This document shows positions 3,110 to 40,411 of a stretch of 43,136 bases of DNA, piece after piece. The notes beneath the pieces are model-generated. The model ran no database searches. It worked only from the letters and a program-made list of their open reading frames with translations, and was not told the origin of the DNA. The position numbers were made by a program, and so were the translations under genes. The stretch is from the NCBI GenBank assembly GCA_030611015.1, contig JAUWQP010000002.1, positions 1-43,136 of the forward strand. Direction: 5' to 3'. Source of the DNA: Chloroflexota bacterium. Lineage in GTDB: Bacteria > Chloroflexota > Dehalococcoidia > GIF9 > AB-539-J10. How positions within the stretch are numbered: the first letter of the stretch is position 1; every line of letters begins with the position of its first letter.

Positions 3110-3202
3110 CTCAGCACCTCCTTATTTTATTGCAAGTTGGACCGGGCTCGCCAGCGACTCGCCAATTTTAGCTTCGTTGCGACTTGCACGGGGTAGTCCA
3201 TA

Positions 3203-3221
3203 GTAACCTCAACGAGGTTAC
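3203..3221. repeat. perfect 8-bp stem / 3-nt loop hairpin (GTAACCTC-aac-GAGGTTAC) in a 160-bp intergenic region
   Basis: Read directly. It lies between the stop of 3270..3509 and the start of 1868..3109. No U-tract follows. Confidence 0.5.
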
Positions 3222-3269
3222 TCGCTATACATACCAGACTCTTCCCATAAAACAAAGGCTTCTCACCGA

Positions 3270-3509
3270 TTATTGATAGCCAACGCGGGCAAGCCATTTT
3301 TGCTTTTGGATTTGTAGGCCGTAGCCTATAAAGAGATTCATCAGGTCAACTAGGTCGGGCTTGGTGATATCCCCCAGTTTGAAGGCGAGCTCAGCAGAAT
3401 CCTTGAGCATCTGCCTCATTTCAGCTGGGACTTTGATGTGAAGGTCATAGTCGGGCTTTTCAGCCAGCTCTAGAACCTCCGGTGTGGGAGTTTCTTTTTC
3501 TTGCACCAT
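3270..3509 (-). CDS. small protein (79 aa), possible DNA-binding/partition adaptor divergent from the ATPase gene
   Basis: ORF trimmed to the ATG at 3509 with a GAGGGGGG SD. It is divergently arranged with the P-loop ATPase gene. The function is a guess from position. Confidence 0.45.
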   Translation of the reverse strand: MVQEKETPTPEVLELAEKPDYDLHIKVPAEMRQMLKDSAELAFKLGDITKPDLVDLMNLFIGYGLQIQKQKWLARVGYQ

Positions 3510-3608
3510 AACACCCCCCTCTTTTAGAGTTACCGAAATTATAGCACCCTTTACGACAAACCACAAGAGGGGGGACTAGAAAAAAGCGACAAAGCCTCGG
3601 TGGGGGCA

Positions 3609-3637
3609 TTGACGGAGGGCTGACAACATGCTATTAT
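3609..3637 (+). promoter_or_regulatory. sigma70-like promoter TTGACG-17-TATTAT, 7 nt before the ATG at 3645 (leaderless arrangement)
   Basis: -35 at 3609-3614, 17-nt spacer, -10 at 3632-3637. There is no SD before the ATG. Confidence 0.55.
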
Positions 3638-3644
3638 AGGCAGA

Positions 3645-4526
3645 ATGAAGACGATAGCGGTGACCGCGTTGAAAGGGGGAGTGGGGAAAAGCTCTATAGT
3701 TGCTGGCTTAGGTTTAGCCCTCGTCAGCAAGGGCTATAAGGTTGGCTTCCTTGACCTGGATGTGACTGGCTCCAATCTCTATTCAGCACTTGGGCTTGCT
3801 CATTCACCGAAGTTCGGCCTTGATAGCGTGAATGAAAAGATAGTCGTGCCTGAGGTAGATGGTTACTGGCTTCTATCTATTGCTTCATATACCGGGGAGG
3901 ACTATGCCGTGCTGTGGGAGAGTGATCAGCACAAGGAGCTAAGCCAGATTAGGGACACCATGGAGACGGCTGACCTGAAAGCATTGAAAAAGCAGATTGA
4001 CGATATTCTGGCTTCCAGTAAATGGCGCTTTGTCGAAGAGTTACTTTCCCCAGATATAGTTACCTGGCCAGAGCCACTTGACTTTCTTATAGCTGATTTA
4101 CCCCCGAGTATTAGCCACGAGATGTTCTCCTTCTTTGACCAGGTCAAAGACCTCTTTGGTGTGTTTATCGTTTCCCAGCCATCAGCTATCTCAAACACCG
4201 GTTTACAGCGAACCATAGACTTATTGCGAGTCCAACAGATTCCTATCATCGGCTTGGTAGGTAATCAGGACGGCTTCCTCTGTAAGCACGGTGAGATAGA
4301 ATATCAATTCTTATCGCCCCGAGTTGACCTCAAAGAGATTGCCAGAAAAGCAGGGATACCCTTCCTGGCTTCAATACCTCAGACAGGAGACACCAATAAA
4401 ATAAAGCCCTATTTCTCGGAGCTAGCTGATAAAGTTGTCAGCTCGAAGCCGGTGGTCCTGAAAGATATCACCCTGGGCAAAAGACTTAAGAGGAAAATAG
4501 TAAAAGGAATAGCCAGGAGGCTGTAG
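3645..4526 (+). CDS. Mrp/NBP35/ApbC-like (ParA/MinD superfamily) P-loop ATPase
   Basis: Deviant Walker A ALKGGVGKSS near the N-terminus and a DLD Walker A' region. GLVGNQDGFLCKHGEIEYQFL aligns with the Mrp ENMS..C..C..F region, with CxxC degenerated to CKHG. Confidence 0.8.
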   Translation: MKTIAVTALKGGVGKSSIVAGLGLALVSKGYKVGFLDLDVTGSNLYSALGLAHSPKFGLDSVNEKIVVPEVDGYWLLSIASYTGEDYAVLWESDQHKELSQIRDTMETADLKALKKQIDDILASSKWRFVEELLSPDIVTWPEPLDFLIADLPPSISHEMFSFFDQVKDLFGVFIVSQPSAISNTGLQRTIDLLRVQQIPIIGLVGNQDGFLCKHGEIEYQFLSPRVDLKEIARKAGIPFLASIPQTGDTNKIKPYFSELADKVVSSKPVVLKDITLGKRLKRKIVKGIARRL

Positions 4527-6549: not shown

Positions 6550-7476
6550 ATGACGGTACTCGTAACTGGAGCATCAGGCTTTGTCGGTTCGGCTCTTATC
6601 CCTCTCTTGATAGAAAAGGGACATTGTGTGTTAGGGCTTTCGCGGCATCCCCCTATTGGCTCAAGAGACCTCATCCCCATCGTCGGTGATGTAATCGAGC
6701 CTAACCTCGGATTGAAGGATGTCCCCCAGGATATTGAGACTATCTATCACCTAGCAGGAATCCACGCTCTTAAACAGGAGGACAAGGACGGCTTGATATG
6801 GAAAACTAACGTGGATGGCACAAGGAATGTCCTCAAGTTCTGTCTTAAACACGATATCCCCAAGCTGATTTTTATTTCGACAGCCTACACCTGGCCGGTT
6901 AATCCCTATGGGTTAAGCAAAATCAGAAATGAGGAAGATATCCTTGCCTTTTGCGAGAAACACGGCCTCAAGGCAACCATCCTCAAGCCGTCAATAGTTA
7001 TGGGAACAGCTGAACATCCCTACCCAGGGCACTTCTCTCGGTTCATATCAGCGGTAATACAGACTCACCGCAGGGCGGAGCTTATCCGGAGAAAGATTGA
7101 GGGTTCACTGCGCCTGCCGGTAATCGAGCCTTTGTTTCGTATTAAGGGTAACCCGGAAGGTAAACTTAACCTCATTCAGATTGGCCAGGTGGCCTGGGGT
7201 ATAGCCAACATTGAGGAAGCCGGCACTTTCTGGCTGACCCACCCTGACCCCCCGACTCTGCAGCAACTAGCCGACTGGGTTGGCGAACTCATCATGGTCA
7301 GGATGAAGTTCGAGCCGGAGTTTAAGCCGACCCCCATTGAGGCAGCATTCCAGAAGATGACTGCTGCCTTTGCCCCTTATCTTCAGGGTGATAATTTCCC
7401 CAGCAACCTGCAGCTCTCCCCCCCAATCAACAAGAGCTTCATCCAGGAGACTGCCAAGAAAACTGTCCTTGACTAA
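6550..7476 (+). CDS. NAD(P)-dependent epimerase/dehydratase (extended SDR)
   Basis: N-terminal VTGASGFVGS Rossmann motif and the catalytic YGLSK (YxxxK). Starts 1 nt after the upstream stop. Confidence 0.85.
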   Translation: MTVLVTGASGFVGSALIPLLIEKGHCVLGLSRHPPIGSRDLIPIVGDVIEPNLGLKDVPQDIETIYHLAGIHALKQEDKDGLIWKTNVDGTRNVLKFCLKHDIPKLIFISTAYTWPVNPYGLSKIRNEEDILAFCEKHGLKATILKPSIVMGTAEHPYPGHFSRFISAVIQTHRRAELIRRKIEGSLRLPVIEPLFRIKGNPEGKLNLIQIGQVAWGIANIEEAGTFWLTHPDPPTLQQLADWVGELIMVRMKFEPEFKPTPIEAAFQKMTAAFAPYLQGDNFPSNLQLSPPINKSFIQETAKKTVLD

Positions 7477-8546: not shown

Positions 8547-8888
8547 TTGAATACTTCTATTCCCAGCCTGCTTATCACTTCCATCAGCAAAGCCGCAGCC
8601 AATGCTACTATCTCACCGGGTACACTTCAGCCGTGGGTCAATGACATAAATAGGCGTGTAGCCGAAGAGGGTAAATTCCCCAAGCCAGCCGTAGCCTATA
8701 TACCATTTTCTCCGCCGCCAGTATTCTGGGATTATAAGTGCCGGAAGTGCCGTTTCTGGCAGGGGCCAGACTCCTGCACAGTAGTAGATGGCAAAATATC
8801 GCCGGGGGGTTGGTGCGCTATCTGGTTACCCCCGGACTCTTATAAGCCCTTTACCTGGCCTAATGAGCTTATGAGAGGTGACTGGTAA
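8547..8888 (+). CDS. HiPIP-like Cys-motif protein (possible 4Fe-4S binding)
   Basis: TTG start behind AGGAGGAG. CRKCRFWQGPDSCTVVDGKISPGGWCAIW has C-x2-C-x8-C-x12-C with the GWC hallmark of high-potential iron-sulfur proteins. Confidence 0.5.
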   Translation: MNTSIPSLLITSISKAAANATISPGTLQPWVNDINRRVAEEGKFPKPAVAYIPFSPPPVFWDYKCRKCRFWQGPDSCTVVDGKISPGGWCAIWLPPDSYKPFTWPNELMRGDW

Positions 8889-9874
8889 TGCCTGAACCTA
8901 AGACTTTGGGACGGGTAGATTGGATGCCCCGCTTGAAAATCTGGCGTGTTATCCGGTATAAAGGCGCAGCCGATATTCCGGCAGGCGATTATCCTACAAA
9001 GAAAGAAGCGGAAGATGCTTTGCGAGAACTTGTAGCTAGAGGCAATCCGGGCGATATAAAGGTCACTCCAGAGGTTACGATGATCTCAGCGAAGCTGGCA
9101 ACAATTGACTTACCTAATGTAAAGGTTTCTGGCAGTTACGCTACCGGAAGTGCTACACCAAAGAGCGATATAGATTTACTCATTGGTATCTCTAATGCTG
9201 AATGGGATAAAGTAACTTTGTATGATTTTCCAGATACAATAAAGAAATTGTATAGCACTTTACCAGAAGATAAGATGACTATTCATCTTTACAAATTGTC
9301 AGAGCCCAATAAATTGTGGCATTTCCAGAGACCTAGAGTAGAAGGAGGCAAACATTTTTCAGGTGTATTCCTTCCAGTGGATTATTCACAGGAAATGACA
9401 CAGGGATTGTGGGATAAGGCAATCAAACCTACTCTAATCCCCAAAGCCAGTGGTAATCCAGAGGTAGTTCTAAACCGAGATAGACGACTCTCAAGAGTTT
9501 CTTACAATGATGCCTATCAAGCTTGGGATGTAGGTATATTTATAAAAGAACCAAGGTATGGTGGCGGTTTTAAGTATGGGAGTAGAGTCCTTAGGAGATC
9601 CTTTGACACCAAAGATACGGCTCAGGCTTGGGTGGATGAGTTTATGAGTCTGGAGTATGGCGAAGTACCAAAAGAGGCCACAGGAGGTAATCCAATGCCA
9701 AAGACAGAAACACAGAGAATAGCATTCCACGAGCGGATATTCGGCAAGGGGTCAATACCGCCCCTTGAGAGGCTAAGGAGAGGGCAAACAGCTAACGAGC
9801 TTATGCCAATGTCGCCAGAAGAGGGACCTCCGTTGCCTAGAGCATTGGGTATTCGCTGGTTTTGGAAAAAATGA
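8888..9874 (+). CDS. Pol-beta-superfamily nucleotidyltransferase-domain protein with C-terminal PPLPRALGIRWFWKK
   Basis: VSGSYATGSATPKSDIDLLIGI fits the GS-x10-D-x-D NTase motif. TAATG overlap with the upstream gene. Confidence 0.65.
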   Translation: MPEPKTLGRVDWMPRLKIWRVIRYKGAADIPAGDYPTKKEAEDALRELVARGNPGDIKVTPEVTMISAKLATIDLPNVKVSGSYATGSATPKSDIDLLIGISNAEWDKVTLYDFPDTIKKLYSTLPEDKMTIHLYKLSEPNKLWHFQRPRVEGGKHFSGVFLPVDYSQEMTQGLWDKAIKPTLIPKASGNPEVVLNRDRRLSRVSYNDAYQAWDVGIFIKEPRYGGGFKYGSRVLRRSFDTKDTAQAWVDEFMSLEYGEVPKEATGGNPMPKTETQRIAFHERIFGKGSIPPLERLRRGQTANELMPMSPEEGPPLPRALGIRWFWKK

Positions 9875-9881
9875 AGTGCTT
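9857..9881. repeat. left copy of the direct repeat flanking the endonuclease gene (TGGTTTTGGAAAAAATGAAGTGCTT)
   Basis: About 21 of 25 positions match 10764-10787, with one 1-nt indel. It spans the stop of 8888..9874 and the start of 9876..10781. Confidence 0.6.
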
Positions 9882-10781
9882 ATTGAGATATTGCCAAGGA
9901 TAATTGAACTCTACTTTAAACAGGAATATTCAATTAAACAAGTAGCGATAACTTTAGGCACTTCTGAAACCTCCACACAACGTATTCTTAAAAAAGCAGG
10001 TTATAAGCTAAGAAGTCCTAGTGAAGCTACGAAGTTAGCCTTTAATAAAGGAAGAGCTATCCGTAATCATAGCCCCAAGACATTAGAGCATAAGAGAAAG
10101 CTATCTGTAGCACAAACCCAATACTTATTTGAACACGACCATCAATTTCTAGGCAGGCATCATAGTACAGCAACAAAAACAAAATTAAAGAGGCGGCAGG
10201 TATCCCTTGAAACTAGAGTTAAATTAAGTGCTAGTTGTAAAGATAGGCCAAGTTCTATGCTCGGTAAGCACCACTCAGAAGAATCTAAAACCAAAATGAG
10301 CCAGACTAGGAAGAAGATGTATGAAAATCCAACATTTAGAGCTGAGATGCTAAAAGTTTTGAAGGAGTGGAGTTCTCGCCCAGAGGTAATTGAAAAACGC
10401 AAACTTGCCATGGCTAGGCGTGTCAGAGATCCTATAGAACTAAGCAAGATGCTGAGTAGCCGGAGGCCAACGGATTTAGAAGCAAAATTGCTTGCTGTAA
10501 TAGAGAAATACCACTTACCCTATAAATATACTGGTGATGGAAGCTTTCTTATTGGCAGACTGAATCCTGATTTTGTTAATACCAACAGTGAGAAGATAGC
10601 CATTGAGGTTTTTGGGGGACACTGGCATCAGGATAAAACTGACTCTATACGAAGTGAGGATGGTAGAAGGAAGATTTTAAGGGAATACGGATGGGAACTT
10701 GTTGTTATCTGGGGTGATGAACTAAAATCAATGCTAGAAGAGGCAATAGTTGAGAAAATAAGGTGGCCTTGGAAAAAGTGA
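9876..10781 (+). CDS. free-standing homing-endonuclease-like protein (HTH + NUMOD3 repeats + Vsr/DUF559-like PD-(D/E)xK domain)
   Basis: Repeated GRHHS..TK.K / GKHHSEESKTKMS NUMOD3-type motifs. The C-terminus NPDF...IAIEVFGGHWH...ELVVIW resembles Vsr/DUF559 nuclease folds. Confidence 0.65.
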   Translation: MLIEILPRIIELYFKQEYSIKQVAITLGTSETSTQRILKKAGYKLRSPSEATKLAFNKGRAIRNHSPKTLEHKRKLSVAQTQYLFEHDHQFLGRHHSTATKTKLKRRQVSLETRVKLSASCKDRPSSMLGKHHSEESKTKMSQTRKKMYENPTFRAEMLKVLKEWSSRPEVIEKRKLAMARRVRDPIELSKMLSSRRPTDLEAKLLAVIEKYHLPYKYTGDGSFLIGRLNPDFVNTNSEKIAIEVFGGHWHQDKTDSIRSEDGRRKILREYGWELVVIWGDELKSMLEEAIVEKIRWPWKK

Positions 10782-10787: not shown

Positions 10788-11147
10788 CTGCTACGAGAAG
10801 TCGACAAACCAAAGAGCCTGGGTGAGAAGATATCGGAGTACCTTGCCAGACCTCCTCAGCCTATTCTCAAGTTTTATGGTGATTTCAGCACTGAGCTGGC
10901 CAATGGCAAGAAGTACCTGCTCTTTGCGGTAAGAAACGGGTTACCCCTCCCCCTCGTCTACGGAATATACATCAAGGCTTCTTATGACTCCCTCACCGAC
11001 TACATTGAAAAAACCGACCATATCGGTCCGTTCAGCACTGATAACTGGAGGCTGACTCTTGACACCACCGCCCCCGCTGTGATAGAAATTAGAGTAGGGC
11101 TAGTCCCCTTTGAAATTATGACCGATAGGACTAAAATTGCTATTTAG
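10782..11147 (+). CDS. hypothetical protein (121 aa)
   Basis: The ATG abuts the upstream TGA. No motif recognised. Confidence 0.55.
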   Translation: MLLLREVDKPKSLGEKISEYLARPPQPILKFYGDFSTELANGKKYLLFAVRNGLPLPLVYGIYIKASYDSLTDYIEKTDHIGPFSTDNWRLTLDTTAPAVIEIRVGLVPFEIMTDRTKIAI

Positions 11148-11159
11148 GGGGTAAGATAA

Positions 11160-11378
11160 ATGGGGCTAATTCATTCGACAGAGGAGTTAAAAGGATGGCC
11201 CGAGGAGAAGCTATCAACCGTAGATAAAGCTAGAGTTGCACTAGGTAATGTCATCGAAGACCCAAAGTATCTTATCCGAGGGGACCCTATACCCACAATT
11301 ATATTTGGACCACCAATATTGCTAGTTGGAGCTGTAGCGGAGCTTGCATCTCGTGGCATAAGGGAGGTTCTCGGATGA
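11160..11378 (+). CDS. hypothetical small protein with a hydrophobic C-terminal segment
   Basis: ATG behind GGGGGTAAG. ATGA overlap with the next gene. Confidence 0.5.
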   Translation: MGLIHSTEELKGWPEEKLSTVDKARVALGNVIEDPKYLIRGDPIPTIIFGPPILLVGAVAELASRGIREVLG

Positions 11379-11776: not shown

Positions 11777-12289
11777 ATGCCAGAGCTTGAAATAGATAAT
11801 TTAAAGTTAGAAGATTTCTGGCCAATGTTACCTAATATGGGGCCACCCTTACCACGATTCCTTAATATTTATTGGCCGTGGTATAAAAAGATATATGGGT
11901 TAGCCCAGACCTGCATTGAGGACCCGACAGGTTTCCCAGTTACAATTGACCCCAGCGTTGACCCAAGAAGTGATAAAATCAAAGCTGGGAAGCCAGTAAC
12001 ACTGTGGCAATATCTGCATAATGTCTCAGGAGAGCCAATGCCTTCATGGTCAATAACCATGTCAGTTACTTACCCTGATGGAACAATATTTGACCTTACT
12101 GAGGTTAGAAGAGATATATCAGCTGGTGAGGAATGGGGTTATACCGTATTTTCTCCTTTTATCCCCACCTTCGAGGATATTTACTCGGGAGATATCACAA
12201 AGCGCACTTACACTGTTAACGTTCAATTACTAATCGAGGGGCAGGTAGCAGATGAGCTCTCTCTCAAGCTACTAGCCCAAGTACCCTAA
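11777..12289 (+). CDS. hypothetical protein with N-terminal GPPLPRFLNIYWPWYKK motif
   Basis: ATG behind GAGAGGTAG. The full PLPR..W.WKK motif is at aa 21-38. Confidence 0.6.
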   Translation: MPELEIDNLKLEDFWPMLPNMGPPLPRFLNIYWPWYKKIYGLAQTCIEDPTGFPVTIDPSVDPRSDKIKAGKPVTLWQYLHNVSGEPMPSWSITMSVTYPDGTIFDLTEVRRDISAGEEWGYTVFSPFIPTFEDIYSGDITKRTYTVNVQLLIEGQVADELSLKLLAQVP

Positions 12290-12302: not shown

Positions 12303-12722
12303 ATGGCAGAACTTGAAGAGCTGGTAAAGATAGAGATAACCAAGCCCCTGCCTGAGATTGGCGGCATCGGTGTAACCTACAAGATTGAGGGCACGGTCAA
12401 GATGTTTGACGTCGTTGGTGCTCCCCCCTGGGTCTATGCCGAGGTGAGACGGAAGGAGTGGTGGAAGCCAGAAATCATTGAAGAGGTCAGCTATGAAAGA
12501 GGCTTCCCCATACCAGTAACCGGAAGCTTCAGCATCAATTTCAAGCCCGAAAAGGAAAGCGATTACGAAGTTACTGTTGTCGCAACACCTGCGCCGCTGT
12601 CTCTCCCCGTCGTTGGTGTGTTCCCAATCACCGGCAAAAGCGCTATGATGAAAGTAAAGGTAGAGAAATTGACTGAAGAGTTTACTAATCTTAAAATCGT
12701 ATCATACGCTAAAGTAGCGTAG
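12303..12722 (+). CDS. paralogue 1 of a tandem beta-rich protein family (C-terminus NLKIVSYAKVA)
   Basis: Shares its C-terminal peptide with 12735..13142. SD AAGGAG. Confidence 0.6.
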   Translation: MAELEELVKIEITKPLPEIGGIGVTYKIEGTVKMFDVVGAPPWVYAEVRRKEWWKPEIIEEVSYERGFPIPVTGSFSINFKPEKESDYEVTVVATPAPLSLPVVGVFPITGKSAMMKVKVEKLTEEFTNLKIVSYAKVA

Positions 12723-12734
12723 CCGGAGGTTAAA

Positions 12735-13142
12735 ATGGCAGTACGAGAAGTAAAGCTAGCACAGCTACCGGAGGTAATAACAGTAAGCCCAGGCGATACC
12801 ATACTTGTAAACAGTTCATTTAACTATATTGGGCCACCAGTTGACCTAGACCTCTACACCGCGATATGGAAGAAGGGTCTGATAGACCCACATGTTCCGA
12901 TCGCCAGTGGCAAAAGAGCATTTAGTATACCCGAAACTGTTCCTCCTCCGGGGATGAATTATACTTTTGGTGTCGAGATGGAAGTGCCTTTAGGAGAGGG
13001 TGGCTTCTTTGGTCTCTTTACCAGGATTTCGTCTATCCCTGGACCGGACATATTCTCCCCTTACTACGAAAATCTTATAGAGATTGTTGGTGCAGTGCCC
13101 GCATTTAGCAATCTGGAAATTGTAAGCTATGCTAAGGTTTAG
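12735..13142 (+). CDS. paralogue 2 of the tandem family (PGPDIFSPYYENLIEIV...NLEIVSYAKV)
   Basis: Clear similarity to 13143..13820 at the N-terminus (KLAQLPEVI / NLAIPPEVL; F.YIGP) and at GPDIFSP.YEN.IEIV. Its C-terminus is shared with 12303..12722. Confidence 0.65.
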   Translation: MAVREVKLAQLPEVITVSPGDTILVNSSFNYIGPPVDLDLYTAIWKKGLIDPHVPIASGKRAFSIPETVPPPGMNYTFGVEMEVPLGEGGFFGLFTRISSIPGPDIFSPYYENLIEIVGAVPAFSNLEIVSYAKV

Positions 13143-13820
13143 GTGGTGACAATTAAAGAGCTTAATCTAGCTATCCCACCAGAGGTATTAAAACTCAAGG
13201 TGGGTGAGATTTGTCGGATTTTAGTCTACTTTGACTATATAGGGCCAGCTATCTCGGGAAAGCTCTATGCTGCCATAGGCAGAGTGGGAATACTTGGCTT
13301 TGACGAGATTGTCAATGCGTCTTCGGATCTCAACGTTCCCGCTACAGCTACTAAAACAAAATATCAGGCACCTGTTAACATTTACATTTCATCAGCGATG
13401 AAAGTAGCTTCTGACTATGATATGTATGCCAAGATAATAGGTATTACCGGGCCTGATATCTTTTCTCCAACCTATGAGAACATTATAGAGATTGTTAGTC
13501 CACTCGCAGTCGAAGTCAAGCTTAAGAACGCACCTACTGCGGGTGAGCAGTGGTATCTCATGATTAGCGACCAAGCTAGGACACAAACTAGAATCGTTAC
13601 TGATGTCCCCATAACTCAGGCAATCACATTTGATAATGTGCCCCAAGACTGGCTTCCTCTGCCATTCTACATATTGATTTACAAGGCCGTAACAAGAGAA
13701 ACTGTAGCCATATATCAGTCCTGGGACTCTACTTTTGCTGGTTACATAAAAGGAGTCTATATTCCTTCCTTCGGGTCATACTACTTCAATTGCTCGACTA
13801 AACTGTTTGAGAAAATATAA
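13143..13820 (+). CDS. paralogue 3 of the tandem family with an extra C-terminal domain
   Basis: GTG start right after the upstream TAG. TGPDIFSPTYENIIEIV matches paralogue 2. Confidence 0.65.
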   Translation: MVTIKELNLAIPPEVLKLKVGEICRILVYFDYIGPAISGKLYAAIGRVGILGFDEIVNASSDLNVPATATKTKYQAPVNIYISSAMKVASDYDMYAKIIGITGPDIFSPTYENIIEIVSPLAVEVKLKNAPTAGEQWYLMISDQARTQTRIVTDVPITQAITFDNVPQDWLPLPFYILIYKAVTRETVAIYQSWDSTFAGYIKGVYIPSFGSYYFNCSTKLFEKI

Positions 13821-13839: not shown

Positions 13840-14106
13840 TTGGCTAGTTCGAAAGAATGGTGGCAGCAATATCAAGAAGCATTACGCCGTGGCGATAAGG
13901 CAGCGGCCGCTGATGCTTTTAAGAGCTATTTGGAAGCTAAAAAGGCTGAGGGGAAAGGTGGCTCTAAACCAACTCTAGTTAATTTGAGCAGCAAAGCTAA
14001 AGATTACCCGAATGCTGTGCCTTTGGAGGATATCCCTCGCCTTATGCAAGAGAAACCTGAGTTTTTTGACCTGATGAAACGCGTGGTGACCAAGGAGAAG
14101 AGCTAG
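13840..14106 (+). CDS. hypothetical small charged protein (88 aa)
   Basis: TTG start about 9 nt after GAGGCGG. No alternative in-frame ATG near the start. Confidence 0.45.
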   Translation: MASSKEWWQQYQEALRRGDKAAAADAFKSYLEAKKAEGKGGSKPTLVNLSSKAKDYPNAVPLEDIPRLMQEKPEFFDLMKRVVTKEKS

Positions 14107-14222
14107 TGCCTAGACGTGCTACTAGAACCAGTTTTAGGAAAGGACAGCCTAGTGCTTTTAAAGGTAGGCGCCATAAAGTGAAATTACCGATAAAATACGG
14201 CAGTTCTTTAGGAGGTGATTAA
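14106..14222 (+). CDS. possible 38-aa highly basic peptide (VPRRATRTSFRKGQPSAFKGRRHKVKL...)
   Basis: GTG overlaps the upstream TAG (TAGTG) with AAGGAG 9 nt upstream. Below the ORF-track size cut-off, so speculative. Confidence 0.25.
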   Translation: MPRRATRTSFRKGQPSAFKGRRHKVKLPIKYGSSLGGD

Positions 14223-16038
14223 AATTCCCGTTACTCTAGCGCTTGCGGATTTCGATTTGCCTACCAGATCGGCCAGCGGCTTCTGCTTAAGATACATCGC
14301 TCCCAGAGTTGAGCCATTCCAGCTTTTTGGTATGCTGGTGCGTCGGTTACCGTTCCAGCTGACAGCCCCCCAATCAGACATAATCATTGGGGTTGGCCAT
14401 GGTAGCGAGTGCTACTCCGAGGATACTGAAATCTTAACAGATAATGGCTGGAAACTATTCCCCGAACTTAGTGCTAATGAGCGAGTTGCTACTCTTAACC
14501 CAGAAACAAACGGGTTAGAATACCAAACAATAAAAAGGCAATTTAAGTATCCTTATAAAGGAAAAATGTTTTATCAAAACGGTGCTGTAGATTTGCTCGT
14601 TACACCTAACCACAATCTCTACTGTAGTTGGATGGTGCATGATGGCAAATATAGACCTTTTACCTTAATAAAGCCAGAGGATTTAGACAATGGTCTCGCC
14701 AGAAGCCCAGAAAATGGTCAATTTATATCTACAGGTAAAACCAAGTCAAGGCTGAAGTACAAAAGAGATGCAAAATGGTTTGGGGAAGATAGAGAATTCT
14801 TTATTCTGCCATCCGTTCAGCGCATCTTCGTAAACCAATCCGGTAAATGTGGCTCAAGGGAAATAGAAGCTAAAAGAATATTAATGGATAATTTCTTACG
14901 GTTCTTTGGTATTTGGTTAGCTGAAGGTTGCACATCCCTTGGCAAAGGTAGAAGAAAACGCAAGAACGGGAATATCGGCAGCTACCTATTTTATAGAGTT
15001 ACTATTGCCCAAAACAACGACCAAAAAAGAACATTGATAAAAGGGTGGCTTAAGCCAATAGCCGAAGAGGTCGGTTTTAAGTTCTGGGAACATAAAAACA
15101 AACATTCCCAAGGTTTTGAATTTAGGAATAAACAGCTATTCCAGTATTTAAGACAATTCGGGAAAGCTAAAAAGAAATACATGCCAAAAGATATAAAAGC
15201 CCTGTGCCCAAGGCAGTTGAAGATATTACTTGATGCTATGATAGTTGGAGATGGTTCTGGTAAAACCTATTCTACCTCATCAAAAAAGCTTGCAGATGAT
15301 GTTCAAGAGATAGCATTAAAAATAGGTTACGCTGCCTCTGTATATAAAAGCCCTGTGCCCCATAGTGGTTATTCTCCGTATAGCGAAATGTATCTCGTTA
15401 ATATTTGTGATGGTCCCCAAAGAGAACCTCTGTGTATGAAGAGCAAAAGGGGCTATGTTGATTATGAAGGCTATGTTTATTCAGTAGAAGTTCCTGAATA
15501 CCATACCTTATATGTGAGGAGGAATGGCAAACCTTGTTGGAGTGGCAATTCAACTTTTACCGGGCAAAATGAGGCAGTAATCCTTGAGGTAGGCAAGTAC
15601 GACCCCAAAGAAGTCAAAGGCAAGGTAATAAAACTACTATCATGCCAGACTGGAGTGGAGCTGGGACCTGACTTAATTAAGAATGGGGCAGCTAGCTTCG
15701 CTGGTTACACTGATGATTTTGTGTGGGTCTGTGATTCCGATTTGGCTTCAACGCCATGGGCTGATAAGGAGTTTGCCGGCAAGTGCTTAATGCCTGTTAT
15801 CGATGGGTTGAATGCCCTTCTTGATGGCAAGACAGCCAGGGAGGCATTTGCTATAGAATTAAATGGCTATTCGAGAAACGCCGAGGAGGAGGAGGATGAG
15901 CTGGTAAAAGCCTGTCTTGAGTTTAATCGAGATAACGCCGTGCTGCTGGGTGATGGAGGTGCTTCTATAAAAGCCAGGCCAGCTTTGGCCTTGCCATTCA
16001 AGCTCATTCCTCCGCCGCCAATAGTAATACCCTATTAG
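14215..16038 (+). CDS. intein-containing precursor; the spliced host protein (about 227 aa) is clan-CD (gingipain/caspase-like) cysteine-peptidase-like
   Basis: Extein junction GVGHGSE|C...SGN|STFTGQ, then LLSCQTG 35 residues after the His. This His-Gly...Ser-Cys spacing matches C25-type peptidases. The start codon is uncertain because GTG 14215 abuts the SD. Confidence 0.75.
   Translation: MIKIPVTLALADFDLPTRSASGFCLRYIAPRVEPFQLFGMLVRRLPFQLTAPQSDIIIGVGHGSECYSEDTEILTDNGWKLFPELSANERVATLNPETNGLEYQTIKRQFKYPYKGKMFYQNGAVDLLVTPNHNLYCSWMVHDGKYRPFTLIKPEDLDNGLARSPENGQFISTGKTKSRLKYKRDAKWFGEDREFFILPSVQRIFVNQSGKCGSREIEAKRILMDNFLRFFGIWLAEGCTSLGKGRRKRKNGNIGSYLFYRVTIAQNNDQKRTLIKGWLKPIAEEVGFKFWEHKNKHSQGFEFRNKQLFQYLRQFGKAKKKYMPKDIKALCPRQLKILLDAMIVGDGSGKTYSTSSKKLADDVQEIALKIGYAASVYKSPVPHSGYSPYSEMYLVNICDGPQREPLCMKSKRGYVDYEGYVYSVEVPEYHTLYVRRNGKPCWSGNSTFTGQNEAVILEVGKYDPKEVKGKVIKLLSCQTGVELGPDLIKNGAASFAGYTDDFVWVCDSDLASTPWADKEFAGKCLMPVIDGLNALLDGKTAREAFAIELNGYSRNAEEEEDELVKACLEFNRDNAVLLGDGGASIKARPALALPFKLIPPPPIVIPY
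14410..15549 (+). mobile_element. 380-aa intein with a LAGLIDADG homing endonuclease domain
   Basis: Block A is CYSEDTEILTDNGW. There are two LAGLIDADG motifs (FFGIWLAEGC and LLDAMIVGDGSG). The C-terminal block is VYSVEVPEYHTLYV..NGKPCWSGN followed by +1 Ser. The penultimate residue is Gly rather than His. Confidence 0.85.
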
Positions 16039-16858: not shown

Positions 16859-17637
16859 TGCAGACATCAGTAGTAGAAGCACTAAAGGCTCAAAACCTTT
16901 ACAAGGAAACCGGGCGCATTATGGAGCAGATGGCAGTGACCATCACCGCCAGCGGAGAGCAAAAAGAACATAAGCTGGCAGAGATGGACTATCTCGACAT
17001 CAAGACCTTCGCCGACGAGATGGATATCGCCCTGAAGCTCCAGAATGAGTATGTCCAGAGCCTCTACGCCAAGAACGCAACCAAGCTGGTAGATCTTATC
17101 AGGGCAGTCAATGTTGAGAGTGCCTCTGGCTTCAAGGGCGCGGTTGGCTCCGGCAGGCAGCTTGACGCTATCATGCTCAGGGCTGAGCAGTTCCAGGACC
17201 CGGATATATTCCCGATTGTCCCTACCTATAGAACAAGCTGGATAAGAACCATCACCGCGCCTATGGCAGCCGCCGGCCCAACCGTTTTCATTGAAAGTGA
17301 TGTGGCTGGTGCGGCAGCCGGCACAGAGCTCGCAATGGCCGATGAGGAGGGCTTAGCTATTCTCGGTTTTGCCAACCCGGGGGCAACACTATATGTAGAT
17401 GCCATCCAGCTTACCTACATCGCGCAGGCGTACAATATCCAGAACCTTGACTTTGAAATGGCCAACCCATTCGTCGGCGATTCCATCGTTGAGCTGAAGC
17501 AGCCGTTGCTCATCTTCCCTAAGGAGACGGGGCTGGTTAGGGTCAAATATTACCGGGCAGGTGTTGCTGACGAGCTGAGGCCGATAGGACTCTGGGTAAA
17601 GATGAGCTCGAACCTGAGGAACTTACTCACAAGCTAA
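16858..17637 (+). CDS. candidate major structural (capsid) protein, 259 aa
   Basis: TAATG-coupled start and a stable hairpin directly downstream. Its position is central in the structural-like block. No sequence motif was recognised, so the role is inferred from context only. Confidence 0.45.
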   Translation: MQTSVVEALKAQNLYKETGRIMEQMAVTITASGEQKEHKLAEMDYLDIKTFADEMDIALKLQNEYVQSLYAKNATKLVDLIRAVNVESASGFKGAVGSGRQLDAIMLRAEQFQDPDIFPIVPTYRTSWIRTITAPMAAAGPTVFIESDVAGAAAGTELAMADEEGLAILGFANPGATLYVDAIQLTYIAQAYNIQNLDFEMANPFVGDSIVELKQPLLIFPKETGLVRVKYYRAGVADELRPIGLWVKMSSNLRNLLTS

Positions 17638-17659
17638 TAGCTTAAGAGTATCCCTATAC

Positions 17660-17686
17660 CGGCACTGAAAATCTTAATCAGTGCCG
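17660..17686 (+). terminator. 9-bp perfect hairpin CGGCACTGA-N9-TCAGTGCCG after the capsid-candidate gene (no U-tract)
   Basis: Read directly. Could be an attenuating terminator or an mRNA-stabilising stem. Confidence 0.35.
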
Positions 17687-17738
17687 TGCCAGTGGGTGCT
17701 TTAGCATCTGCTGAGACCTAACATAGGAGGTGTTAGAG

Positions 17739-18650
17739 ATGGGAGCAGGATTTAGATGGGTTAAATTTATCTACGCGTGGTGCAAGGCTTTTAGCACACA
17801 AATTCTGGGGGCCATCAAGGCTAGCGTAATGGGAGGGGGTACCACCTACTTCGTTGAAGGTAATACCGGCCTCGACACCAACAACGGTCTCACCCGGGAG
17901 GCGCCGTTACTGACGATAGCCCACGCCCTGGATCTGTGCGTAGCCGGTAACGACGACACTATCATCGTTCTGGACCACTACCAGGAGACCTTCCCAATCA
18001 CTGTAAGCAAGGCGAAGGTACATATCATCGGGGTCAATGTAGGTCAGCCAATGGTATGGTTAACCGCTGCCCTCGATACCGCCATCTTCGAAATTGAAGC
18101 GGATAACGTCGAGATTGCGGGCTTTGAGTTCGGTGCTGGAGCAACCCATGCCGCAATCGAGTTTACCGATCTTGTCACCGAAAGGGGTTACGGCCGTATT
18201 CATGACTGTGCATTCGGATGGATGCAGGCGGGGCAGGATGGAATTAGGGTGCCAGCGACCGCCGACGCTGCGGAGACCATCATCGAGAAGTGCTTCTTTG
18301 GTAATAACCTGACTCGTGATGGCATCCGCATCGAGCATAACATGACCCGTGGGATAATTCAGAATAACATCTTCCGTTCAGTGACGGGTGTAGGCATCAA
18401 TGTTCTGGGGCAGATGGCTTTGGGGATTCTCAAAGGCAACAAGTTCAAGCTTCCTGCGAACAACGCCGGAGGAGCTATCACACTGAGTGCAGCAGCCGAC
18501 GTCGCTGGTGAAATATATATTGTGGACAACGATGCTAACTTTGGGAATACCACTATGGTTGCGATACCATGGGTGGTAACTGGTGGGTCTACCATCGGTT
18601 GCACATGGGATAACAATAGGCGAGATGGTGCGGTAGTTTCGCCAGCGTAA
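17739..18650 (+). CDS. right-handed parallel beta-helix protein (pectate-lyase-fold; spike/depolymerase-like)
   Basis: ATG behind AGGAGG. The N-terminal cap motif is YFVEGNTGLDTNNGLTREAPLLTIAHAL. Repeated NN.F/GN.F-type PbH1-like turns are present (NNIFRSVTGVGINV, GNKFKL, DNDANFGN). Confidence 0.65.
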   Translation: MGAGFRWVKFIYAWCKAFSTQILGAIKASVMGGGTTYFVEGNTGLDTNNGLTREAPLLTIAHALDLCVAGNDDTIIVLDHYQETFPITVSKAKVHIIGVNVGQPMVWLTAALDTAIFEIEADNVEIAGFEFGAGATHAAIEFTDLVTERGYGRIHDCAFGWMQAGQDGIRVPATADAAETIIEKCFFGNNLTRDGIRIEHNMTRGIIQNNIFRSVTGVGINVLGQMALGILKGNKFKLPANNAGGAITLSAAADVAGEIYIVDNDANFGNTTMVAIPWVVTGGSTIGCTWDNNRRDGAVVSPA

Positions 18651-18676
18651 CCTTAGTAGCAAACTGAATAGTAAAC

Positions 18677-18699
18677 GGGGGAGGGCTCATCCCTCCCCC
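18677..18699. terminator. GC-rich 9-bp hairpin GGGGGAGGG-ctcat-CCCTCCCCC
   Basis: Read directly. It lies after the beta-helix gene. There is no clear U-tract on the plus strand, and the flank on the minus strand is moderately T-rich. Confidence 0.35.
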
Positions 18700-18747
18700 A
18701 AAGAAATAAACTTACTCTCCGGAGAGGAGAGAGAAGGAGTGTGAGTT

Positions 18748-19371
18748 ATGCTGGAACTCAAACCTATGCCCGAGGCGACTGTTACGCCCGGGGTCCCAAA
18801 ACTTCTCCAGGAGGGGTTCTATGTGAGGTTCACCGACCAGTGGCCTCTCACATTACCCCACGTCAAGGGTAAGACCTTTCAGATTGAAAGGACCAACCAA
18901 GTCCCCTACGACATAACCCGCATAATTCCAGGTGGGCATTATGTAGATATTGACCTTTCCAATTCTGCAGGTGGGGAGAACATCTACCCTGAGAACACCA
19001 AGACCCTCTATGAGACGCTCATCGGATTTAAACCTGGTAATTATTTAGTCCACTTCTATATTCCCGCTGGTGAGTATGTCCACCGGCTTGAGCAGGCAGG
19101 GATGGTACCCAATGTTGCCTCAGCTACTAGACGCTATCTTGGTGCCCGCAAGCCCGAAGACAGCCCCTACGATGACAAGAGGATATTCACGTACTCAGTG
19201 AAGGATCTTGAACCACTTAGCCTGCGGCTTCTGGTCGATAATGGGGTAGCCTGGGAGAAGATGGTTTTGGGGCTAATTGTAAATAAGTGTTACCTGAAGG
19301 AGATAACACCAACGCCTGAGCAACTTGCCAGAGCCAAAAAAATTGATTACTACACTGAATTGAGATGGTGA
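18748..19371 (+). CDS. hypothetical beta-rich structural-like protein (207 aa)
   Basis: GAAGGAG SD. Composition suggests a beta-sandwich. No motif recognised. Confidence 0.55.
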   Translation: MLELKPMPEATVTPGVPKLLQEGFYVRFTDQWPLTLPHVKGKTFQIERTNQVPYDITRIIPGGHYVDIDLSNSAGGENIYPENTKTLYETLIGFKPGNYLVHFYIPAGEYVHRLEQAGMVPNVASATRRYLGARKPEDSPYDDKRIFTYSVKDLEPLSLRLLVDNGVAWEKMVLGLIVNKCYLKEITPTPEQLARAKKIDYYTELRW

Positions 19372-19398
19372 GCTTAACACAGTTATAGGGAGGTAAAC

Positions 19399-19773
19399 AT
19401 GCCTAGTATAGTGGTAGATATGGGTACGTTGACAACCGAACCTTTAGTAACCGAGAAGCGTAATGCTAAGGTTAAACCCAGCCTGATCATGGTGGATAAC
19501 GTCGATGCCCTTGCCGACTCTGAGCTGACTTTCCAGGACATCTTCAACACAGACGCCAGCATAGTAGCCGCGACCGGTGCAGCGGTAGCTGCAGTAGCAG
19601 GACAAGTAGTTAACCGCCTGAGAATAAATGTCTCAATGGCTGCCTGCGTCTCCATAAGAGATGAGCTGGAAGACATTAAGTTTTTAGGTGGAGCTCAGGT
19701 CCTAAGAGAGGAGGCCGGGGCACCGGCCCTGGATGGCGGTTGCCATGTGACACTCGGCTATGATTTAGAATAG
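19399..19773 (+). CDS. hypothetical protein (124 aa)
   Basis: ATG behind GGGAGG. Confidence 0.55.
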   Translation: MPSIVVDMGTLTTEPLVTEKRNAKVKPSLIMVDNVDALADSELTFQDIFNTDASIVAATGAAVAAVAGQVVNRLRINVSMAACVSIRDELEDIKFLGGAQVLREEAGAPALDGGCHVTLGYDLE

Positions 19774-19791
19774 CTCTAAAGGGGGGAATTG

Positions 19792-20268
19792 ATGGTATAT
19801 CCAGTGAAAAAATCCCTCTTCGAGGGGTTAACCACTATTGATGAGCGTGTGGACTTTGTTCACAACCAAGTCCTCTCTGTTCAGCTTGCGCTGAATCAAC
19901 TATTAGAAAAGGAAGGTGTTCCAACTATGGCCGTAGTCACTAGAGAGGTTAATTTAAGAGCAAGCGTCCAGCCACTAACCGGTACCAAGGTGACCAAACC
20001 CTCACCTCTCACCGGGAAGATAGTCCAACTTATCCCACATTGGCCTGATGGCGCAGATGCCCTTGTAGATGTGGCTGTGGGGCACAAGGATACCTGGATC
20101 CTCCCCAACGAGGTTGACACTTTTATCGCCTTGAATGATGCTACCCCGGTTCTCACTGTTAATGAGTCCATCGAGAAAGGCGAAGAAGTCTGGATGATAT
20201 TGAGGAACACCGATGGGGCAAACCCCCATGCAATAAGCTGCACTGTAACAATCATAGGAGTACCCTAA
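19792..20268 (+). CDS. hypothetical beta-rich protein (158 aa)
   Basis: ATG at 19792, 5 nt after AAAGGGGGG. Confidence 0.55.
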   Translation: MVYPVKKSLFEGLTTIDERVDFVHNQVLSVQLALNQLLEKEGVPTMAVVTREVNLRASVQPLTGTKVTKPSPLTGKIVQLIPHWPDGADALVDVAVGHKDTWILPNEVDTFIALNDATPVLTVNESIEKGEEVWMILRNTDGANPHAISCTVTIIGVP

Positions 20269-21564: not shown

Positions 21565-21950
21565 CCGTGAGAGTGATTAGAGAAAACCTGGTAGGCTTAT
21601 TCAAGTTCCTATTCATTCTCCTAGGTATTCTGTTCCCATTCAGGCTAAAAAGGGAGAGACCATCACAGACACGATACAGAAAAGAAACTAGCAGGGAAGA
21701 GCCTGTTAATCATAAATATGCTAGCTTCATTGGCCCCAGTGAGCCTCTCATCCCGACTGAACCCTGCTTCTGCCCTAAATGCCATGTGCTTGTGGCTTCT
21801 TTGAGGCGCACCAAAGAGGGTATCAAGATAATTCAGAATAATAGGGTGCTTGTTACTGTAGGGGGCAACTTTACGACTAGCGAGGGAGGAAAGGTTAGGA
21901 CGGGCTTCCCAATGAAATGCCCTAACGGGCACACGGTGGAGGTGCAATAG
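21558..21950 (+). CDS. membrane-anchored zinc-ribbon protein
   Basis: N-terminal hydrophobic helix (LVGLFKFLFILLGILFPF), then CFCPKCH...CPNGH. The GTG start is uncertain. Confidence 0.45.
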   Translation: MLTVRVIRENLVGLFKFLFILLGILFPFRLKRERPSQTRYRKETSREEPVNHKYASFIGPSEPLIPTEPCFCPKCHVLVASLRRTKEGIKIIQNNRVLVTVGGNFTTSEGGKVRTGFPMKCPNGHTVEVQ

Positions 21951-23776
21951 TGGCTTGGATTAAGGAACTTGGACTATTCCAGACGGCTACTGCCATTGTA
22001 TTGTCTAATGATACCCCGGCAATAGTGAGGGCTCTAGCTAGGGTAGCTAAGGTGGCTCTTGGTGCCCTGATACAAGTGTGTGATGAAGTCGCTGACCAAG
22101 TTGAAATAAATGCCGCCATTAATGCCTTGCCTGTCTATGCAGGTAAAAGACATGGCAGGATTGTTTTCGTAGGTGGAATGTTCCGCACTTCTGATACTAT
22201 CAACGTTGATGGTGACATTACCCTTGAAGGGCAGATGATGCCTATACCTACTTATGACTCGGGAACTACCATACGGAATGAGAACATAGCCGGGGCAGAT
22301 GCCTTTCACCTCTTGGCTCCTGGTGGCTTTCCTGACCACGTGATAAAAGTTGTCCTCAGGAATATGTGTATTAGAGGCAATGCTGCCTCTGGGCACGGAG
22401 TATATGCTGATAAGGTTCACTTCACCCTCTATAACATAGTGCTTTTGTCTCATGGTGGAGATGGAATATATGTAGAGGCTTGCTGGGGTGGGAGTATTAT
22501 AGAGAGTGACATCAGAAATAACGAGGGTGCTGGAGTTTCTTATAATAGGGATGCTGTTACTGGGCATACCTGTACCTGGCAGCTCATAGACCACTGTAAT
22601 ATCGGCCATAACCACACAAATGCTGACATCTACATGCCTGACTACACAGCGGAGCTGATAGTCCGAGCCTGTTACTTTGAGCATGGTGATGACATTGGTG
22701 CGATACACCACATAGAGATAGGTGGAGGCTCGAATGTTACAATATGTGATGGCTGCCGGCTCGCTGCCAATTACAATATTGCCGCTACTCCTATCCATAT
22801 TAGTAACGGTGGCCGTGTCAGGATTACGGATAACTTTATAGGTGGCGATGCAGCCAGGTGCATAGAAATAGCCATTGGAGTATCTACTGACATTATCGGG
22901 AACGACTTTATTGCGGGCTGGACAGAGTGGTGTATCCACTGTTCTGTCACTGGCGGCTCGGTGCTGATTGATGATAACTACTTCCCTCTTGACCAGGACA
23001 CATACCCTGATTGCATCATAGCAAGGCTTGTGGCTGATAACGCAATCTTCACTAATAATAGGGCAATAGCCACAGGTACAGGCAACAACAGGACTGCGGT
23101 GCACCTCATCAATGTTGACAACTGCGTTGTAAGTGATAATATCCTCCTTGGTCCATTCGATAATACCTGGATACGACTGGATCCTGGGAATTACTGCACA
23201 TTAGAAGGTAACACTATTGAGGGTGCCAGTGGACTAGGCATCTACTTGGCCTCAACAAGTTCTTACAACACAGTAGTAGGCGATATCTGCCGTGGCAACA
23301 ACATCGGGATTGAGCTGGGTGCAGACTCACATCATAACACAGCAAAGAGCAATAGCTGTCCGAACAATGCTACAGTAGGGATTAGTAACAATGGTACGGA
23401 TAACATAACTGATGTAGCTGCCCACTCAATTGCCCTTGACCTCTCTGGAGGAGCAACGGACATAGAGGTCTACCATGCCAAGGTAGCATGCTCCTTCTTT
23501 GGCTACGAGATACTCTATACTGAGGCATCTTCTGTCAATGCTGGTGTCAATGTGAGGATAGGCAGGTATCAGGATGGGGTAGCCTTAGATGATGATTATT
23601 TTGATGTTTCTGTTTCTGAGGTCAGTAAGAACAAGGGCTACTCAAAGCAGTTCGATCGTGCTGATTTGACCCAATCAGTGATTGCTGCTGGAGACACAAT
23701 AACAGCTGGTATTGCTGGTGGGAAGGTAGGTACTGGTGAGGTATTACTCATCCTACAGATAGCGGAGACGGGGTGA
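21950..23776 (+). CDS. large right-handed beta-helix repeat protein (608 aa; receptor-binding/depolymerase-like)
   Basis: GTG overlaps the upstream TAG, with GGAGGTG 6 nt upstream. Many PbH1-like repeats are present (IRGNAASGHGVYAD, NNEGAGVSY, GNTIEGASGLGIYL, GNNIGIEL, NNATVGISNNG). Confidence 0.75.
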   Translation: MAWIKELGLFQTATAIVLSNDTPAIVRALARVAKVALGALIQVCDEVADQVEINAAINALPVYAGKRHGRIVFVGGMFRTSDTINVDGDITLEGQMMPIPTYDSGTTIRNENIAGADAFHLLAPGGFPDHVIKVVLRNMCIRGNAASGHGVYADKVHFTLYNIVLLSHGGDGIYVEACWGGSIIESDIRNNEGAGVSYNRDAVTGHTCTWQLIDHCNIGHNHTNADIYMPDYTAELIVRACYFEHGDDIGAIHHIEIGGGSNVTICDGCRLAANYNIAATPIHISNGGRVRITDNFIGGDAARCIEIAIGVSTDIIGNDFIAGWTEWCIHCSVTGGSVLIDDNYFPLDQDTYPDCIIARLVADNAIFTNNRAIATGTGNNRTAVHLINVDNCVVSDNILLGPFDNTWIRLDPGNYCTLEGNTIEGASGLGIYLASTSSYNTVVGDICRGNNIGIELGADSHHNTAKSNSCPNNATVGISNNGTDNITDVAAHSIALDLSGGATDIEVYHAKVACSFFGYEILYTEASSVNAGVNVRIGRYQDGVALDDDYFDVSVSEVSKNKGYSKQFDRADLTQSVIAAGDTITAGIAGGKVGTGEVLLILQIAETG

Positions 23777-40389: not shown

Positions 40390-40411
40390 GCGTATAACAG
40401 CCGTTATACGC
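40390..40411. repeat. family-A palindrome copy 4 (GCGTATAA-cagccg-TTATACGC; perfect arms)
   Basis: Its TTA at 40404-40406 is the stop of 40404..41201. Confidence 0.8.

Follow-up and report, generated by a model that had tools for sequence, protein, structure and literature searches.

A LAGLIDADG intein in the predicted active-site loop of a probable small clan CD-like cysteine peptidase from a virus-like or plasmid-like element of Dehalococcoidia

The stretch of DNA analysed here (positions 1 to 43,136 of contig JAUWQP010000002.1, assembly GCA_030611015.1, from a Chloroflexota bacterium of the class Dehalococcoidia; the whole stretch is called the window below) carries on its forward strand an open reading frame (ORF; 14215-16038) that likely encodes a precursor of about 69 kDa: a small clan CD-like cysteine peptidase whose loop L3 is split by a homing-endonuclease intein, three residues past the putative catalytic His-Gly. 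Read from the GTG at 14215 to the TAG stop at 16036-16038, the precursor has 607 aa, and its reading frame of 1824 nt is uninterrupted over all 607 codons. It consists of an N-extein of 65 aa that ends in GHGSE (14215-14409; delimited by alignment, tblastn and a structural model, in which it has the order beta1-alpha1-beta2-alpha2-beta3), a class-1-type LAGLIDADG intein of 380 aa running from Cys1 to Asn380 (14410-15549, precursor residues 66-445), and a C-extein of 162 aa (15550-16035; alignment and tblastn) whose first residue is the +1 Ser (15550-15552).

The boundaries of the intein are exact because alleles without an intein, from metagenome-assembled genomes (MAGs) of Dehalococcoidia, match both exteins on adjoining nucleotides. 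When the precursor was compared with intein-less loci by tblastn, the match always fell into two directly abutting pieces; in one such locus (L001) residues 4-65 corresponded to nt 10001-10186 and residues 446-589 to nt 10187-10615. At the protein level, 19 extein homologues run unbroken through the junction with the pattern GHG[DS][VE]D.FTGQNE. The +1 position is mostly Asp in the intein-less alleles and Ser in the window protein, a replacement that is what splicing requires. The original prediction, which a model had made from the DNA letters, placed the ORF and the 380-aa intein correctly to the residue, as the abutting tblastn pieces show, and its Cys1, its two LAGLIDADG motifs, its C-terminal block and its +1 Ser all lie where it had put them. 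A chance ORF was rejected in view of the intein-less alleles, more than 500 extein homologues and intein homologues down to E = 1e-175.

The intein begins with CYSEDTEILT and ends with NGKPCWSGN, and the motifs of a class 1 intein could be assigned along its length. Block A (CYSEDTEILTDNGW; 14410-14451) supplies the nucleophile Cys1, block B (LLVTPNHNL; 14593-14619) contains the T-x-x-H motif, and blocks F and G (YVYSVEVPEYHTLYVRRNGKPCWSGN; 15472-15549) hold the conserved block F His, a penultimate Gly and the terminal Asn. Between them lie two LAGLIDADG motifs, FFGIWLAEG (14902-14928), which keeps its acidic Glu, and LLDAMIVGDG (15226-15255), which keeps its acidic Asp; as both acidic residues are kept, the homing endonuclease is, on sequence grounds, probably active. 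The intein is also absent from homologous alleles, and its terminal Asn is followed by Ser. The original prediction had proposed a Pfam search of the intein as a check, and this gave a match of precursor residues 350-385, adjoining the second motif, to LAGLIDADG_3 (PF14528) at 24.6 bits, above the curated cutoff of 22.5. The N-terminal Hint block matched the intein-bearing phrog_85 at 8e-9. The generic models Intein_splicing, TIGR01443 and TIGR01445 gave scores under their cutoffs, which marks the window intein as having diverged from the sequences that seeded these curated models.

A search with the intein alone recovered at least 795 homologous proteins, and the hosts in this family include dCTP deaminase, thymidylate synthase (ThyA), NDP-sugar 4,6-dehydratases, PAPS reductase, DNA methylases and methyltransferases, ligase and PolB. 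This populous family had already been sampled, and the window intein adds a new member to it. Termini were counted in the 116 members whose boundaries could be mapped: all begin with Cys, 114 end in [GS]N (GN in 85, SN in 29), and the +1 residue is Cys in 53, Ser in 52 and Thr in 10, with one exception. The C-terminus has the consensus RRNGKxxW[CS][GS]N. Cys1 and the T-x-x-H of block B are conserved across the 116 members, the block F His is conserved in at least 90% of the family and is present in the window intein, and all of the foremost conserved positions (at least 90% in the family alignment) are kept there. The penultimate Gly, which had been singled out as a departure from the usual His, is indeed present, but it is no anomaly: with 85 of the 116 members ending in GN it is the norm of the family. 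The penultimate His is an assisting and not a defining residue, and splicing-competent exceptions are documented. In the gp51 recombination directionality factor (RDF) intein of mycobacteriophage Bethlehem, likewise of class 1 with Gly ahead of the terminal Asn, this Gly is compatible with efficient splicing, and the block F His can stand in for the absent penultimate His (PMC5050341).

Removal of the intein gives an extein of 227 aa with the junction ...IIIGVGHGSE/STFTGQNE... (the slash marks the splice site). Its putative catalytic His-Gly is part of Gly61-His62-Gly63 (14395-14403), which alignment and model place at the C-terminal end of strand beta3; the His62 codon (CAT, 14398-14400) lies three residues ahead of the intein Cys. 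The putative catalytic Cys97 (spliced numbering; TGC, 15643-15645) follows strand beta4 in KVIKLLSCQTG (15622-15654), 35 residues past His62, so that the spacing originally described for the spliced protein was borne out. The spliced extein matched 503 proteins, of which the best 120 are 218-252 aa long and 72-85% identical to it. When a profile of 18 close intein-less homologues was searched against 1.84 billion representative proteins, 882 clusters (50% identity) were found at E <= 1e-3. Conservation of the proposed His/Cys dyad among homologues had been put forward as a check, and in an alignment of 115 members, the most distant of them about 23% identical, no column is invariant other than those of His62, Gly63 and Cys97, each kept in 115/115. 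Gly61 is present in 114/115, the residue ahead of Cys97 is Ser, Ala or Thr, and loop L1 has an acidic residue (Asp or Glu) at position 14 in 105/110.

The fold of the extein was predicted with AlphaFold2 (AF2). An alignment limited to 20 close homologues yielded an unusable model, with a predicted local distance difference test score (pLDDT) of 42; this alignment was replaced by the 115-sequence alignment, which gave a model with a pLDDT of 94.6 and a predicted template-modelling score (pTM) of 0.89. Its elements are beta1 (5-10), alpha1 (15-27), beta2 (33-38), alpha2 (44-53) and beta3 (56-60), followed by G61-H62-G63; then a hairpin (67-69 and 75-78) and beta4 (91-95), followed by S96-C97; and then alpha3 (103-109), beta5 (114-118), three helices and a last strand (195-199). 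In the caspase/haemoglobinase fold the His stands where beta3 ends and the Cys where beta4 ends, a small sheet lies between beta3 and alpha3, and the clan CD signature includes a conserved Gly beside the His (PMC4357240). In the model, the His-Gly ends beta3 and the Cys ends beta4, with the His first, and the predicted order of elements along the chain is compatible with that fold. The concern that some 61 residues ahead of the His would be too few for it was not sustained, as the model fits beta1-alpha1-beta2-alpha2-beta3 into them.

A Foldseek search of the PDB with this model returned clan CD enzymes as 11 of the 14 best matches, with probabilities of 0.96-1.00 and query-normalised template-modelling (TM) scores of 0.38-0.57. 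Separase (5u1s and 5u1t) matched at E = 4e-4 to 6e-4 and SAVED-CHAT (8tl0) at TM 0.54-0.57; human separase (9hma), the Craspase TPR-CHAT protein (7y84 and 8d9h), caspase-7 and CED-3 were near the top, and DdvA, PIGK and C11 enzymes were lower. The matches in BFVD include the caspase of a giant virus (Fadolivirus) and, at E = 1.9e-6, a myovirus protein that is uncharacterised. The original prediction had likened the extein to gingipain-type (C25) peptidases of caspase fold. The clan-level part of this suggestion held in the fold prediction that it had itself called for, through the separase, CHAT and caspase matches; the C25 part did not, because none of the 50 PDB fold matches listed is gingipain and PF01364 (Peptidase_C25) gave no match to the extein and only faint ones, at E = 0.066, to 2 of the 115 members. 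Gingipain/C25 was accordingly rejected as the specific family. The extein does share with gingipain a GHG(S) followed, about 35 residues on, by a hydrophobic strand and then the Cys, a spacing similar to that of His211 and Cys244 in gingipain R.

By sequence, the extein belongs to none of the existing families C11, C13, C14, C25, C50, C80 and CHAT, and no model in Pfam, NCBIfam, PHROGs or PADLOC matches it. If it is in clan CD it is therefore a new family, and we regard it as a probable new cysteine peptidase family within clan CD, previously without a model. Several features of the family lie outside the catalytic core. The C-terminal tail (spliced residues 200-227, 15952-16035) is Pro-rich (RPALALPFKLIPPPPIVIPY) and modelled with lower confidence; within it Arg208, which does not vary among close homologues, is modelled by AF2 in an isolated beta-bridge. 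The substrate cleft may be where this tail lies, and autoinhibition or autoprocessing would then be suggested. In many distant members a hydrophobic, transmembrane-like tail takes the place of this region. In one distant member (P0202) the protease domain follows an N-terminal metallo-beta-lactamase (MBL)-fold domain that matches Lamassu LmuA, Avs1a and DRT models, and in another (P0237) it is followed by a long C-terminal region, rich in repeats and Kelch-like on visual inspection; these fusions suggest that the family may have been recruited to defence-like settings elsewhere.

The start of the protease gene is best considered together with its homologues, which begin M/V-P-T-V-L at ATG or GTG; the codon aligned with their start is ATT 14224 in the window. 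Within the start region (14210-14226) a Shine-Dalgarno sequence, AGGAGG (14210-14215), overlaps GTG 14215 and precedes ATT 14224 by 8 nt. Judged from the sequence, initiation is likely at ATT 14224, or at GTG 14215 with three additional residues. ATT 14224 may be a rare initiation codon.

The intact motifs suggest how the precursor would mature. Cys66 would start an N-S acyl shift, Ser446 would take over the N-extein and Asn445 would cyclise, probably assisted by the conserved block F His, since the penultimate residue is Gly. Splicing would release the intein and join ...GHGSE to STFTGQ..., yielding a protein of about 25 kDa in which the His62/Cys97 dyad is intact. Since the intein interrupts the active-site loop L3, no activity is expected of the precursor. 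The spliced extein is most likely, on the basis of its modelled fold and invariant dyad, an active cysteine protease. Loop L1 is one of the regions that set S1 specificity in clan CD (PMC4357240), and the near-invariant Asp/Glu at position 14 in this loop suggests cleavage after Arg or Lys. As to the biological role, which is the weakest step of the interpretation, we tentatively rank highest the possibility that the protease processes proteins encoded by the surrounding conserved gene block of a virus-like mobile element, although its odds are less than even.

Several observations weigh against this interpretation. In the intein, the penultimate His of class 1 (block G:6) is replaced by Gly, and block F has Ser at a position where Asp is commonest. 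For the extein, no clan CD sequence model in the Pfam and NCBIfam scans detects it, and searching the family profile against PDB sequences found no protease. Comparison of this profile with caspase-3 by hhalign gave a probability of 0.4%, which is not significant; the sole alignment put GHG on the SHG of the caspase and was treated as no evidence. The structural similarity to clan CD is moderate (TM 0.46-0.57), with flavodoxin-like folds lower in the same list. As for function, no capsid, portal or terminase gene is detectable, and for that reason a maturation role, as originally suggested for the protease, lacks direct support. The departures in the intein, together with a non-standard start codon (ATT, or a GTG overlapped by the Shine-Dalgarno sequence), are also what would be expected of a decayed intein that no longer splices and has inactivated the protease gene in the window element. 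We consider decay very improbable, as the 1824-nt frame is open throughout, every family position of at least 90% conservation is kept (both acidic endonuclease residues included), GN or SN ends occur in 114/116 members, spread over many essential host genes, and the +1 residue has been changed from the usual Asp to the nucleophile Ser. Less probable again, and the least so of the readings considered, is that the extein is a flavodoxin-like, non-proteolytic protein that uses its invariant His and Cys as ligands of a metal or cofactor. The FMN reductases SsuE and WrbA do occur among the weaker fold matches, but flavodoxin-like proteins reach only TM 0.25-0.33 against the 0.46-0.57 of clan CD enzymes, the extein has neither a flavin-binding motif nor a Pfam flavodoxin match, and His-Gly after one strand with Ser/Ala-Cys after the next is the clan CD signature (PMC4357240).

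A caspase-like protein with a genuine Cys/His site could also be a transpeptidase or ligase, as are the GPI-transamidase subunit PIGK and the legumain ligases; the nearby UbiA, CTP-transferase, polyketide-synthase-like and epimerase genes might make a lipid or glycan to which it attaches proteins of the element. The fold matches include PIGK (7wld_K); UbiA-like and epimerase genes are kept in position upstream in relatives, L001 has genes of lipid/glycan type, and many family members end in a Pro-rich linker and a hydrophobic tail. PIGK, however, ranked 21st (E = 0.028), after hydrolases of the separase, CHAT and caspase kinds, the neighbouring proteins showed no identifiable lipid-attachment signal, and the lipid/glycan genes lie 6-8 kb off rather than adjacent, which makes ligation an improbable activity for the extein. 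A protease of the clan CD type might, instead, serve host takeover, defence or counter-defence, as CHAT proteases do in CRISPR type III-E and CBASS-like systems. SAVED-CHAT and Craspase TPR-CHAT are among the best fold matches, and the MBL-fold domain fused to the protease in P0202 matches models of defence effectors. Such a role seems unlikely, though less so than ligation: PADLOC gave no match to the extein or to eight further members of a single domain, the gene lacks a sensor domain, and it lies in a packed, one-directional block of small ORFs with the same 88-aa neighbour in 11/12 related loci. It ranks after the processing of co-encoded proteins considered above. A bolder version of that reading, in which the protease is a core processing enzyme of an unclassified Dehalococcoidia virus lineage without recognisable capsid or terminase, and the intein a redox- or condition-gated activation switch, appears as improbable as ligation. 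The intein has, in addition to Cys1, a conserved Cys in C-W-S-G-N, four residues ahead of its end, and in this version the second Cys together with the splitting of the loop would let the intein delay activation of the protease until splicing.

The composition and distribution of the intein give indirect signs of mobility. Its GC content is 0.385, compared with 0.518 and 0.481 for the two exteins and 0.476 for the window; the lowest-GC stretch of 1140 nt in the window begins at 14420, and only 0.12% of stretches of this length are as low. Among the best 120 matches to the intein, 31 are proteins of the same protease family (30 besides the window protein), with the intein at the same profile position. 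In the distant alleles that were compared, the inteins are 46-55% identical and the exteins 29-35%, and inteins that are more alike than their exteins fit lateral homing better than co-descent. A GC content 10 points under that of the surroundings, greater conservation of intein than of extein and at least 30 alleles with an intein in the loop all fit spread by homing, in which the LAGLIDADG endonuclease would carry the intein at the DNA level into intein-less alleles of the same gene in co-resident elements. That an intein in a protease-like gene would be unusual, as first remarked, is true to a modest degree, but the case is not unique, at least 30 other alleles of the family carrying one. 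The exact offset of the intein differs among the protease alleles (P0276-P0305), which show GHG/C, GHGx/C and GHGxx/C, that is, one to three residues past the His-Gly; this could reflect several independent invasions of the same loop, or extein residues gained or lost beside the intein. The more distant intein-bearing alleles lie on contigs of about 47-52 kb whose ORFs are mostly without database match, with an integrase on one. On both of these contigs (L019 and L020) another gene has an intein-domain match: a 425-aa ORF in the first (2615-3892), with a faint match to Intein_splicing, and a 1034-aa ORF in the second (16868-19972), also matching Intein_splicing. These virus-like elements may be intein-rich.

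The protease gene is part of a tightly packed, one-directional block of small conserved ORFs. Directly upstream lies the 88-aa ORF (13840-14106, forward strand), present in 11/12 of the related loci compared; its stop codon, in relatives, adjoins or overlaps the start of the protease gene. Gene order in relatives is kept as ParA, two small ORFs, a UbiA-like gene, an epimerase, variable paralogues, the 88-aa ORF and the protease, followed downstream by ORFs of 107, 131 and 259 aa; L001 also has a CTP_transf_like gene, a type III polyketide synthase (PKS)-like gene and glycosyltransferases. Genome collections yielded 10 close relatives, every one of them in a MAG of Dehalococcoidia, Dehalococcoidales or Chloroflexota; a 64.9-kb IMG/VR viral contig carries one relative, and one distant relative is in a Methanofastidiosa tailed virus. 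The contigs of two distant members (P0182 and P0227) were too short for gene context. From its gene content the element is virus-like or plasmid-like, with its close relatives in Dehalococcoidia MAGs. Elsewhere in the window we identified ParA (3645-4526), the epimerase (6550-7476), beta-helix/fibre-like proteins (17730-18650 and 21950-23776), an HNH endonuclease (28870-29484), Prim-Pol/D5 (31012-33312), a Pam3 gp34-like protein (33322-34203), a PAPS-reductase-like protein (39037-39897), an MmcB-like protein (40404-41201) and DctP (41999-43075), the last possibly host flank. A scan of about 46 window ORFs gave no model match for capsid, portal, terminase or integrase; the only hints of a morphogenesis module are the beta-helix/fibre-like ORFs, and the neighbours of the protease match no known family. 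The description of the gene as a late gene in a structural block therefore found no support. A tRNA-flanked prophage was rejected, as no tRNAs were found in the window.

Some other features of the window were noted. The only other patch in which 1140-nt GC falls under 0.41 (0.404-0.41) is at 8888-10781. It covers an NTP_transf_2-like ORF (8888-9874), of which relatives match the last ~60 residues only, corresponding to a separate 62-aa gene in L001, and an ORF with NUMOD3 and REase_MTES_1575 matches (9876-10781), whose homologue in L001 lies directly downstream of the protease gene (10840-11346); the latter ORF looks like a free-standing homing-endonuclease insertion. Three adjacent paralogous ORFs without database matches (12303-12722, 12735-13142 and 13143-13820) partly share GPDIFSPxYENxIEIV...NLxIVSYAKV, with GPDIFSP in the last two and the SYAKV end in the first two; this set varies among relatives, and L001 has a single 1084-aa ORF there. 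The motif GPPLPRxLxIxWxWxKK occurs at the C-terminus of ORF 8888-9874 (9811-9874) and near the N-terminus of ORF 11777-12289 (11830-11890), and three times in another related locus, L011 (5977-6051, 18044-18121 and 18811-18900); it could be a shared targeting or processing signal.

Set beside known systems, the extein resembles separase (C50), the CHAT proteases (SAVED-CHAT and the Craspase TPR-CHAT protein Csx29) and the caspases (C14) in its predicted alpha/beta/alpha caspase-haemoglobinase fold. As in clan CD generally, its His-Gly ends beta3 and its Ser-Cys ends beta4, with a hydrophobic strand ahead of each, the His comes earlier than the Cys in the sequence, and a small beta-hairpin lies between the His and beta4. 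Unlike these families, it is a single domain of ~225 aa without prodomain or sensor domain, and it has three C-terminal helices and a Pro-rich tail. The intein is homologous over its full length to those of the same family in other hosts (32-45% identity), sharing with them the CY..TE[IV]LT start, VTPxH, the two LAGLIDADG motifs and the RRNGKxxW[CS][GS]N end, whereas its host is a caspase-fold protease that is split in the catalytic loop. An intein within a protease gene has a precedent in ClpP of Chlamydomonas eugametos (Wang & Liu 1997, as cited in PMC4031507); the host in that case is a serine protease, in contrast to the Cys/His clan CD-like enzyme of the window. In full-text searches, none of the papers listed among the matches described an intein inside an enzyme of clan CD.

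The finding is modestly surprising: both components are of known kinds, and the understanding of inteins and of clan CD proteases is unchanged. It adds a caspase-fold enzyme to the known intein hosts. It also defines a large family (882 clusters) that had no Pfam, NCBIfam, PHROGs or PADLOC model, and whose members, on the contigs examined, lie in virus-like or mobile-element surroundings where the neighbouring ORFs have no database matches. Inteins tend toward conserved functional loops, and the active site is supported independently by the finding that in at least 30 alleles an intein lies one to three residues past the invariant His-Gly. The gene also provides a natural system in which splicing should turn a protease on and, being conserved and of an activity that can be assayed, a handle on poorly understood mobile elements in Dehalococcoidia MAGs.

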